Below, in pieces: positions 19,751-20,075 of a DNA stretch of 64,000 bases. Made by a program: the position numbers and the translations under genes. The first letter of the stretch is position 1, and every line of letters begins with the position of its first letter. The notes below the pieces were generated by a model. The model did not search any database. It was not told the origin of the DNA and was given only the letters and a program-made list of their open reading frames with translations. This DNA is from Patescibacteria group bacterium. Lineage in GTDB: Bacteria > Patescibacteriota > Patescibacteriia > Magasanikbacterales > GWA2-37-8. The stretch lies in NCBI GenBank assembly GCA_041661385.1, contig JBAZUP010000001.1, forward strand, positions 495,920 to 559,919. Direction: 5' to 3'.

Positions 19751-19779
19751 TTGAAAAATCTTAAGCTTTTTGGTATAAT
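19751..19779 (+). promoter_or_regulatory. Near-consensus sigma70 promoter driving the tRNA locus
   Basis: TTGAAA, 17 nt, TGgTATAAT. First tRNA half starts about 15 nt downstream. Confidence 0.65.
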
Positions 19780-19793
19780 GAGCGCTACTAATG

Positions 19794-19830
19794 GGGCGTG
19801 TAACTCAGCGGTTAGAGTGCCACCTTTATA
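19794..19830 (+). other. 5' half of an interrupted tRNA (acceptor 5' strand, D-arm, anticodon stem 5' strand, loop start)
   Basis: gggcgtg ta actc agcggtta gagt g ccacc tttata. Acceptor strand is complementary, with one G-U pair, to catgccc in the 3' half at 20068-20074. Confidence 0.6.
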
Positions 19831-19875
19831 TTTACTAGGGACGAACGAAATACAAATGATTGGTGCGCCAAAAAC

Positions 19876-19948
19876 GCGCCTGTAACTCAGCGGTAAGAGT
19901 GCCACCCTTATAAGGTGGAAGTCGATGGTTCGATTCCATCCAGGCGCA
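19876..19948 (+). tRNA. tRNA, anticodon read as UAU (Ile, AUA-decoding), 73 nt, no encoded CCA
   Basis: gcgcctg/caggcgc acceptor; D-arm actc-agcggtaa-gagt; anticodon arm ccacc-cttataa-ggtgg; T-arm gatgg-ttcgatt-ccatc; discriminator A. Anticodon identity is from a manual fold. Confidence 0.7.
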
Positions 19949-19982
19949 CCGCTCATTTGCATTTCTGAGGCCCGACGTAAAT

Positions 19983-20038
19983 ATATCTGCTAGTGAGGAA
20001 AAAATGAATTAATTCGCTTTTTCCTCACTAGCAGATAT
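19983..20038. repeat. Perfect 21-bp inverted repeat with a 14-nt loop, immediately 5' of the tRNA 3' half
   Basis: atatctgctagtgaggaaaaa ...atgaattaattcgc... tttttcctcactagcagatat. All 21 pairs are Watson-Crick. Confidence 0.8.
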
Positions 20039-20039
20039 A

Positions 20040-20075
20040 AGGTGGAGGTCGATGGTTCGATTCCATCCATGCCCA
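20040..20075 (+). other. 3' half of the interrupted tRNA (anticodon stem 3' strand, variable loop, T-arm, acceptor 3' strand)
   Basis: a ggtgg aggtc gatgg ttcgatt ccatc catgccc a. 37 of 38 nt identical to the 3' part of the intact tRNA up to the acceptor. The rluD-like ATG follows 1 nt later. Confidence 0.6.

Follow-up and report, generated by a model that had tools for sequence, protein, structure and literature searches.

A tRNA-Ile(UAU) gene nested in the anticodon loop of another: a candidate self-replacing tRNA gene element in Patescibacteria

Introduction

Genomic islands that lodge in transfer RNA (tRNA) genes are integrated by tyrosine integrases, and the gene they enter is restored by sequence that the island itself supplies (Islander database paper, PMC4383910). 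The present article concerns a locus that invites comparison with such islands on a far smaller scale. In a 64-kb stretch of the roughly 0.8-Mb genome of a Patescibacteria group bacterium (contig JBAZUP010000001.1), here called the window and used for all coordinates unless another locus is named, an intact tRNA-Ile(UAU) gene lies inside the split anticodon loop of a second tRNA-Ile(UAU), upstream of the rluD-like pseudouridine synthase gene. Probably, a small non-coding cassette that carries a tRNA on a hairpin stalk has entered this resident gene at a specific site, as an event in the DNA, the outer copy being the gene that was disrupted.

As in the islands and prophages of tRNA and transfer-messenger RNA (tmRNA) genes, insertion is specific to a site in a tRNA gene, and the target is an anticodon loop within a symmetric stem; a preference of integrases for the tRNA anticodon loop was reportedly described by Williams in 2002. 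Also shared are an element that supplies what keeps the tRNA working, displaced fragments at the junctions, and serial events that lead to arrays of fragments. Unlike tRNA islands, which measure kilobases, window-type inserts span 55-210 bp, about a hundred times less, and contain no integrase or other gene. Only four nucleotides (TATA) are common to the junctions, and the nesting is recursive. The insert also carries a complete tRNA gene with its own acceptor pair on a hairpin stalk instead of a partial identity block, and the copies are therefore nested and not side by side.

An archaeal case comes close in other respects. In Caldiarchaeum subterraneum, a tRNA-Thr gene is disrupted by a mobile element (Sugahara et al. 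2012, PMC3293823). There, too, a single locus is heterogeneous within the population, and a 5' tRNA fragment precedes the insert and a functional copy follows. However, that insert is 1.8 kb long, encodes a recombinase and occurs at six sites, the functional copy has introns spliced by the archaeal machinery, and neither a hairpin stalk nor a tRNA inside a tRNA is present. Archaeal bulge-helix-bulge tRNA introns and the split tRNAs of Nanoarchaeum and Caldivirga interrupt their genes at or beside position 37/38. The window shares with them this site of interruption, complementary sequences that could hold the halves together and a fold that brings the outer halves into contact. It differs in being bacterial, in lacking a bulge-helix-bulge and in having its halves collinear behind one promoter, where split tRNAs of the Nanoarchaeum type have theirs in separate transcription units that are joined in trans; in relatives, moreover, the outer copies are decayed or partnerless, and a separate intact copy is always present.

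Two further groups of elements deserve comparison. Correia elements of Neisseria are miniature inverted-repeat elements with a TA-type target duplication, conserved termini and tens to hundreds of dispersed copies; they are co-transcribed with their neighbours and form hairpins cleavable by RNase III. The present modules share with them small size, the absence of coding sequence, terminal repeats in inverted arrangement, a brief AT duplication of the target, occurrence in both orientations, co-transcription with adjacent genes and the formation of hairpins. Unlike them, the modules are seen in one tRNA gene only, have termini that vary but covary, and may carry a tRNA in the loop. Group I introns, for their part, have a conserved catalytic core (P3-P9) and typically measure 200 nt or more. 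Patescibacteria have them in tRNA genes, within the anticodon loop (Nakagawa et al. 2026, PMC13011429), the same phylum and the same site as here, whereas the present inserts give no group I match and include modules as short as 55 nt. The survey of Nakagawa et al. makes no mention of tRNA-Ile(UAU), nesting or palindromes, and literature searches found no published account of nested bacterial tRNA genes or of tRNA-Ile(UAU) insertions in Patescibacteria.

A complete tRNA gene within a split one

The anatomy of the locus is given in Table 1. Twenty Patescibacteria (Magasanikbacteria-like) lineages, gathered by rluD homologues and a tRNA-sequence scan, serve for comparison and are cited by L-number where necessary. 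Among named bacteria, Magasanikbacteria stand closest to the window. A near-consensus promoter drives the whole unit and is kept in the related loci read, where the layout CTTGAAAAA...TATAAT recurs 5' of the first tRNA piece. The 5' half of the outer tRNA is 91% identical to the intact tRNA over 35 nt and differs by one base from the corresponding half of the uninterrupted tRNA of L003; its final four bases are the duplicated target, TATA. The outer 3' half is 93% identical to the intact tRNA over 41 nt. The outer acceptor strands pair with each other at seven of seven positions, including one G-T, and not with the inner tRNA. When the halves are joined in silico, ARAGORN returns a perfect tRNA-Ile(tat) cloverleaf. 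A joined outer RNA would contain CCACCTTTATAAGGTGG, with CCACCTTTATA meeting AGGTGG..., and would end in GGGCGTG/CATGCCC.

The insert that splits this anticodon loop is 209 nt long and consists of two modules. The first carries the only functional-looking tRNA copy of the window locus, whose acceptor type matches the resident tRNAs of L006, L009, L010 and L024. Its 5' and 3' flanks are complementary to each other (43-nt arms, 74%), which places the inner tRNA on a long stalk, and the left arm is homologous to spacer 1 of L006. The second module, E2, carries no tRNA. With the TATA on either side included, it is an inverted repeat of 22 perfectly paired bp (arms 19982-20003 and 20018-20039) around a 14-nt loop, and 100 shuffles gave no match to it; the loop, GGAAAAAATGAATTAATTCGCTTTTTCC, is one base different from that of L021. 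TATA stands at all three module junctions (TATA, module 1, TATA, module 2, TATA) and corresponds to four bases of the anticodon-loop sequence TTATAA. The ends of the insert, TATATTTACTAG and CTAGCAGATATA, form ten Watson-Crick pairs and one G-T pair over 12 positions, and the predicted fold of the whole 284 nt is a tRNA inside a tRNA (z = -8.8).

Most of this arrangement had been read from the letters alone in the initial annotation, and closer analysis recovered its parts at the same places: the promoter, the 5' half with its spacer of about 45 nt, the complete UAU tRNA, the 3' half ending 1 nt before the rluD-like ATG (20077), the mutual pairing of the outer acceptor strands around an insert of about 209 nt that holds a second intact copy, and the 11-of-12 complementarity of the insert ends. 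The inverted repeat is indeed present and perfect, but its arms are 22 nt long and not the 21 bp first given. Two features were absent from that reading, namely the stalk made by the flanks of the inner tRNA and the return of TATA at the module junctions. Among the checks proposed there, ARAGORN with intron options on 19700-20150 called the inner tRNA and missed the outer one. Rfam, at gathering thresholds and at E <= 10, matched tRNA only, apart from spurious microRNA-type matches on the palindrome.

Contigs from other samples reproduce the arrangement. Logan contigs from SRR18595301 and SRR6484324, the latter beginning within the inner tRNA, match the window exactly over the stretch that each covers, and the nested locus is thus not an assembly artefact.

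Table 1. Features of the nested tRNA locus and of its surroundings in the 64-kb window
Feature	Position	Strand	Basis or note
Promoter TTGAAA-17 nt-TATAAT with upstream extended TG	19751-19779	+	11/12 consensus matches
Outer (resident) tRNA-Ile(UAU), 5' half: acceptor GGGCGTG, D arm, anticodon stem CCACC, loop TTTATA	19794-19830	+	
Left stalk arm (E1-L: TTTAC TAGGGACGAA CGAAATACAAATGA...) and inner-tRNA leader	19831-19875	+	complementary to 19949-19981
Inner intact tRNA-Ile(UAU), acceptor GCGCCTG/CAGGCGC, cassette cargo	19876-19948	+	ARAGORN; Rfam RF00005, 74.2 bits
Trailer and right stalk arm (E1-R: ...TCATTTGCATTTCTG AGGCCCGAC GTAAA)	19949-19981	+	
Internal TATA junction between the two modules	19982-19985	.	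sequence reading
Second, cargo-less palindromic module E2 (TCTGC...GCAGA)	19986-20035	.	R1 covariance model, 57 bits minus / 51 bits plus
Outer tRNA, 3' half: TATA, A, anticodon stem GGTGG, variable region, T arm, acceptor CATGCCC, discriminator A	20036-20075	+	
rluD-like pseudouridine synthase gene	20077-21054	+	PF00849, PF01479
tRNA-Leu(CAG)	29582-29666		
RNase J	29759-31618		
Bacterial class A RNase P RNA	32821-33218	minus	176 bits
tRNA isopentenyltransferase MiaA	47259-48200		

The same locus in related lineages

The gene order PAP2, tRNA locus, rluD is conserved, and the state of the tRNA is not. Nine lineages (L003, L009, L010, L013 and L023-L027) have one uninterrupted tRNA directly after the promoter. 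In L003, which is among the closest relatives of the window, the outer tRNA of the window (GGGCGTG...CATGCCC) stands intact and abuts the rluD ATG; it is the ancestral site, and it answers the call of the initial annotation for an uninterrupted version in related genomes.

Four lineages are nested and keep both outer halves. Besides the window, these include L004, where the outer copy is of the GCGCCTG type and the inner of the GGGCATG type, roughly the reverse of the window, and L011, with GGGCCTG outside and GGGCATA inside (the independent assembly L016 is the same). The fourth, L012, is doubly nested: two extra 5' and two extra 3' halves surround one intact tRNA, the inner type being GGGCCTG and the outer GGGCATA, the reverse of L011, and its outer halves bear mutations and a hairpin insertion. 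Two further lineages keep the cassette but only decayed remains of the outer tRNA, in L015 a divergent 5' half and in L008 about 15 nt after the -10 box; the stalk of the inner tRNA is still paired in both.

Orphan 5' halves characterize L005, L006 and L007 (identical to the independent assembly L014), where one or two orphans, cargo-less hairpins and a truncated 3' half are followed by one intact tRNA. The locus of L021 (ERZ27237563) is partial, with a hairpin adjoining the 3' half. At the position of this hairpin, L020 (GCA_021812425.1) has an uninterrupted loop, and the two rluD genes are about 100% identical over the 900 nt compared, which suggests, from sequence, a very recent gain or loss of the hairpin. 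L022, whose contig begins inside the tRNA, is assigned to none of these classes.

Several regularities emerge from this comparison. Exactly one intact tRNA-Ile(UAU) is present in each of the 18 loci resolved by ARAGORN. Displaced 5' and/or 3' fragments from anticodon-loop insertion occur in ten lineages, and the depth of nesting varies, L012 and L006 having two levels. Wherever a resolved locus contains a cargo-less module, an intact tRNA lies elsewhere in that locus, downstream of the module in L005, L006 and L007 and upstream, in the cargo cassette, in the window and L012. Lineages with a plain gene and lineages with an interrupted one are mixed together, at rluD identities of about 70-76%.

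Some observations concern the records themselves. Four independent contigs, those of L002, L020, L021 and L022, end inside the locus, within a tRNA half or hairpin. Assemblers tend to break here, and the nested arrangement may therefore be under-reported in metagenome-assembled genomes. When metagenomes were scanned for 5' halves with an interruption, a single contig was recovered, from the same organism as L011. L008 (CAYOXC010000003.1) and L012 (CAZHNI010000011.1) are titled 'uncultured Gammaproteobacteria' but are probably mislabelled bins, since their tRNA, gene order and rluD fit the Patescibacteria clade.

A family of palindromic modules

The modules of these loci have a common design, which runs from TATA through five variable bases, an AAGNGAG box, a purine-rich stem (GAGAAAA...), a tip, a pyrimidine stem, a GAGYGCC box and five complementary bases to a second TATA. 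The tip is either a short loop or a leader, tRNA and trailer. The five terminal bases are paired in every copy and different between copies; the internal loop, AAGNGAG opposite GAGYGCC, and the flanking TATA are conserved across modules. No insert contains a real gene, and the cargo-less inserts measure about 55 nt plus 21 nt.

Covariation is evident in both types of module. R1 is a covariance model of the cargo-less module, from whose building the L012 module was left out. It has 90% paired cells and nine pairs changed on both sides, and for four of five measures none of 500 shuffles reached the observed values. Of the 24 consensus pairs in the stalks of six cargo cassettes, 14 have changed in a compensatory way. 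In 166 kb, made up of the 64-kb window and about 100 kb of related loci, R1 matches at E < 0.01 were confined to the tRNA-Ile locus.

R1 also reveals orientation. The L012 module scores 54 bits on the minus strand versus 14 on the plus strand and is therefore inverted, an orientation shared by the L021 module, while the modules of L005 and L006 lie forward, with 75 and 73 bits on the plus strand; that of E2 is ambiguous through symmetry. The presence of cargo-less modules in either orientation fits a DNA event at the palindromic core and not an oriented RNA signal. TATA flanks each module in the window, L004, L005 and L011, as well as the inverted module of L012; the exceptions are one CATA junction in L006 and one TTCA junction in L012. 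The layout TATA-module-TATA-module-TATA is common to L004, L005, L011 and L012. A target-site duplication and a 4-nt recombination core would look alike in such a duplicated TATA.

Recombination sites that act as folded single-strand hairpins include integron attC, the CTX phage site used by XerCD, and the ends of IS200/IS605 or REP elements. The modules resemble them in a structure conserved above sequence, in the unpaired positions of AAGNGAG opposite GAGYGCC, in a constant junction, in serial addition and in a variable tip. These conserved hairpin features fit attC, IS200/IS605 and REP-type sites alike and do not discriminate between them. They differ from attC, dif and IS ends in their core, which is TATA and not GTTRRRY, dif or TTAC, and in their restriction to a single tRNA gene, and the window encodes no cognate recombinase; the likeness is an analogy of mechanism only. 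Two specific readings, of the conserved internal loop as a kink-turn and of the module termini as an attC R-box, were dropped on inspection, the sequences being off consensus.

Searches of wider collections returned no relative of the modules. In viral contigs, the tRNA 5'-half pattern found tRNA-Asp genes only, a 16-mer from the stalk gave 38 matches, judged to be about the chance number and none of them confirmed by the covariance model, and the E2 loop gave zero matches. Against phage and plasmid collections, blastn matched the tRNA body only, and a protein-database search with a spurious antisense open reading frame (ORF) across the locus found nothing.

In some loci, the short second module contains GCGAAGC (L005 2886-2906, L007 ~1603-1640), a DNA mini-hairpin known for its unusual stability. 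In others, only CAAAG, CGATAG or CGAAG is left between two TATA-like sequences (L004 ~285-289, L011 ~718-723, L012 ~3404-3409), as if these remnants were a reduced form of the GCGAAGC module. Small GC-rich palindromes of a different kind lie in non-essential DNA: in L012 (~3126-3170) within the D loop of a decayed 5' half, in L008 (~3903-3955, minus strand) apparently, by eye, within the T loop of a decayed 3' half, in L023 (1408-1500) as three GACGCTSAGCGTC hairpins between tRNA and rluD, and in L015 (~960-1050) as one long palindrome.

Proposed replacement of a resident tRNA by a stalked cassette

Insertion at the DNA level into the TATA of the anticodon loop would fit the uninterrupted relatives, the duplicated TATA, the exclusive location of the modules, the two orientations of the cargo-less ones at a palindromic core and the reciprocal nesting of acceptor types. 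According to this reading, which we consider probable, the cassette would consist of an intact tRNA-Ile(UAU) at the tip of an imperfect stalk of 35-45 bp (arms E-L and E-R) bounded by TATA. It would enter the TATA of TTATAA, duplicate these four bases and destroy the resident gene; E2, a cargo-less module of the same family, would then sit at a regenerated TATA. The initial annotation had listed a small insertion with terminal inverted repeats, bringing a tRNA copy into the anticodon loop, as its third candidate explanation. The comparative data favour that candidate through the uninterrupted sister site, the recurring module family, the duplicated TATA and the cargo-less modules in either orientation.

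The loss of the resident gene would matter to the cell, because AUA accounts for 272 of 1484 Ile codons (18%) in the ORFs of the window and the UAU tRNA is thus probably essential. The UAU anticodon had been noted at the outset as uncommon in bacteria. It is rare in general but the rule in this clade, being present in every resolved locus. A precedent for a UAU-anticodon tRNA is Mycoplasma mobile, and bacteria with such a tRNA are typically without an alternative system (PMC3575796). Disruption of a probably essential gene makes sense of the rule that each locus has one intact copy: where no other copy exists, an inserted module would survive only if it brought a replacement, oriented so that the resident promoter reads it. 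Cargo-less modules appear only where an intact copy exists elsewhere in the same locus.

The cargo tRNA would then replace the lost function, transcribed by read-through from the resident promoter and presumably released by RNase P at its 5' end and by RNase Z or exonucleases at its 3' end. The stalk may keep the four near-identical half-tRNA segments from mispairing and may also serve as an RNase III site. The outer halves, as parts of a disrupted gene, would decay with time, and their state in relatives, decayed in L012, L015 and L008 and partnerless in L005-L007, indicates that the outer copy is dispensable. They could still form an acceptor/T-arm helix that marks the 5' end of a leaderless rluD and may itself be processed. 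Repeated invasion would produce double nesting, and recombination between repeated halves would produce orphan halves or a restored plain gene. As for the chemistry, a trans-acting enzyme might recombine the palindromic TATA core, speculatively on folded single-stranded hairpins; alternatively, and no less speculatively, the cell might take up DNA in which the conserved tRNA halves serve homologous recombination and so spread the cassette.

Several points weigh against a mobile cassette. The 53 ORFs of the window, 64 kb of a genome of ~0.8 Mb, and the neighbours in L008, L011, L012 and L015 offer no candidate for a recombinase, transposase or nuclease. In the window and ~100 kb of related loci, every module copy lies in this tRNA, and a mobile element would usually be found elsewhere too. 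Divergence between module copies is not clearly below that of the flanking genes (about 70-89% on short alignments against 69-76%), and horizontal movement is therefore not proven; the module sequences are too short to separate horizontal from vertical spread. The difference between L020 and L021 could reflect an assembly path through repeated halves. The stalk, conserved after decay of the outer gene, appears to have some role in place, which suggests a role in RNA and keeps RNA-level processes in play. In L012, acceptor complementarity nests the halves imperfectly, so extra recombination must be assumed. Finally, RNA processing, essentiality and chemistry are inferred here from sequence, in contrast to the anatomy, recurrence, site restriction and outer-copy decay, which are observed directly along with the uninterrupted relatives, the covariation and the two orientations.

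Alternative explanations

The present variety could also descend from one ancient nesting in the ancestor of the clade, inherited vertically and reshaped by deletion between halves, gene conversion, partial tandem duplication and decay, with modules that are immobile today. This history is unlikely, yet it would accommodate a module divergence similar to genome divergence, the confinement of the modules to one locus, the lack of an enzyme among the window ORFs or neighbours, and the conservation of the stalk in place after outer decay. It would also suit the orphan 5' halves of L005, L006 and L007, which are identical to the intact copy of the same genome, as from gene conversion or local duplication. 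Vertical inheritance is harder to reconcile with reciprocal partners (the window versus L004, L011 versus L012), with unequal depth (two levels in L012 and L006) and with cargo-less modules in both orientations at regenerated TATA sites. Nor does it predict that plain and interrupted lineages should be intermixed as they are, that L020 and L021 should differ despite nearly identical rluD genes, or that more distant Magasanikbacteria (L009, L010, L013) should be plain.

An integrase-borne island or prophage might instead have entered the anticodon loop and later been deleted to a scar of about 200 bp, as tyrosine integrases commonly target tRNA genes, splitting a gene that the island restores and leaving a displaced fragment (PMC4383910). 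The arrangement in L005, L006 and L007 does resemble a displaced 5' fragment with a regenerated gene, and in the archaeal case an insert with a recombinase is preceded by a 5' fragment of the tRNA (PMC3293823). Random deletions, however, would not be expected to yield the same small architecture of stalk, TATA and second module in at least nine lineages. With no larger version and no integrase at any locus examined, with complete tRNAs instead of identity blocks in the nested cases, and with a stalk that shows compensatory evolution, an island scar is quite improbable.

Explanations at the RNA level take the 209 nt as an intron that is excised with ligation of the outer halves, or take the halves as a split tRNA held together, either of which would give the cell two functional tRNA-Ile(UAU). 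The initial annotation had proposed both forms, an intron-like element and a split tRNA assembled in trans. In the window, L004 and L011, the outer halves are undamaged and their acceptor stems pair throughout; the predicted transcript fold forms the outer acceptor stem and T arm around the insert; the position is compatible with the canonical 37/38 site; and Patescibacteria are rich in tRNA introns (PMC13011429). Even so, a search of 19650-20150 with cmscan returned no intron or ribozyme family, group I included, at E <= 10. At the junctions, minimum-free-energy folding of the window, L011 and L004 gives a continuous helix or three-way junction and not the paired 3-nt bulges, 4 bp apart, of a bulge-helix-bulge, and inverted cargo-less modules would alter an RNA motif. 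The outer tRNA, moreover, appears dispensable from its orphans and decayed halves, and each resolved locus keeps one separate intact copy. A tRNA nicked in the anticodon loop is inactive unless religated, and the 53 window ORFs include neither a splicing endonuclease nor an RtcB ligase. Both proposals are thus unsupported, since outer halves elsewhere are decayed, as in L012, L015 and L008, or have no 3' partner, as in L005, L006 and L007. Related genomes in which the 5' half has no conserved partner had been named at the outset as part of what would refute an interrupted gene, and these lineages are such genomes. On balance, an RNA-level element is very improbable.

A narrower version holds that the outer tRNA is still made alongside the inner one. 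RNase P, RNase Z and perhaps RNase III would free the inner tRNA and trim the hairpins, and the outer halves, held together by acceptor/T-arm pairing and the stalk, would be religated. The chance of this is slim. Were it so, the locus would hold a protein-processed bacterial tRNA intron that itself encodes a tRNA, and two tRNAs would arise from one nested gene.

An assembly or binning artefact from repeated tRNA halves has a negligible probability, for although several contigs (L002, L020, L021, L022) end within the locus, the window, L001 and L002 are identical over covered stretches from different samples, independent assemblies agree (L011 with L016, L007 with L014), and the longest exact run shared by inner and outer halves, 22 nt, is below usual assembler k-mer lengths.

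Genomic neighbourhood

The rluD gene follows the tRNA with almost no gap. Its ATG stands one base after the outer tRNA 3' end in the window, and the start lies 1-2 bases after the tRNA 3' end (CAC|ATG or CACT|ATG) in the window (20075-20079), L003 (~809-812), L004 (~328-333), L005 (~2998-3003), L011 (~757-762), L024 and L026, with a like abutment in L006. Neither a separate promoter nor a ribosome-binding site would fit into this gap, and rluD must therefore be co-transcribed with the tRNA and lack a leader of its own. The arrangement suggests a leaderless mRNA punctuated by a tRNA, the 5' end of which would be made by tRNA 3' processing.

Other genes intervene in some relatives. In L012 (3575-5353) and L015 (1764-3530), the tRNA locus and rluD are separated by an ATP-binding cassette (ABC) transporter gene; in L012, the last decayed 3' half stands just upstream of the likely start of the transporter, ATG 3590, and an in-frame ATG at 3575 lies inside the half. 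L025 (1053-1496) has an extra ORF of 147 residues between tRNA and rluD, with no Pfam match on record. Its likely ATG is two bases after the tRNA 3' end (CACT|ATG), and the start chosen by the gene caller lies upstream, over the tRNA. On the other side of the locus, a conserved TTCTGACAAC motif occupies 19731-19741 of the window, ~10 nt 5' of the -35 box, and the same position in the related loci read; on the minus strand, TTCTGACAAC contains the -35-like TTGTCA of the divergent PAP2 promoter.

The genes flanking the inserts are PAP2, rluD and the ABC transporter, with no integrase in any locus. In Pfam searches, neither the 53 ORFs of the 64-kb window nor the neighbouring genes of L008, L011, L012 and L015 yielded a recombinase, integrase, transposase, HUH nuclease, RtcB or tRNA-splicing endonuclease, and nearly all matches belong to housekeeping families. 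The window also encodes the RNase P RNA, RNase J, MiaA and a tRNA-Leu (Table 1).

Implications for tRNA genes and mobile elements

Taken together, the comparison suggests an undescribed kind of self-replacing tRNA gene element, of interest to tRNA and mobile-element biology alike. If this is true, the cassette would be a minimal selfish gene of about 150-200 bp, little beyond a tRNA gene on a hairpin stalk and without an enzyme of its own. It would destroy the essential tRNA copy of its host and make the host depend on the copy that it carries, the logic of tRNA-targeting islands. The conserved TATA-bounded hairpin also points to a candidate structure-specific recombination activity in Patescibacteria.

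The locus has practical consequences for annotation. Standard tools report the inner tRNA alone, orphan halves could pass for split genes, and assemblers break contigs at such sites. More broadly, the nested locus would offer a concrete bacterial route from DNA insertion to interrupted or fragmented tRNA genes and to leaders and trailers that pair with each other, a transition so far discussed mainly for Archaea.

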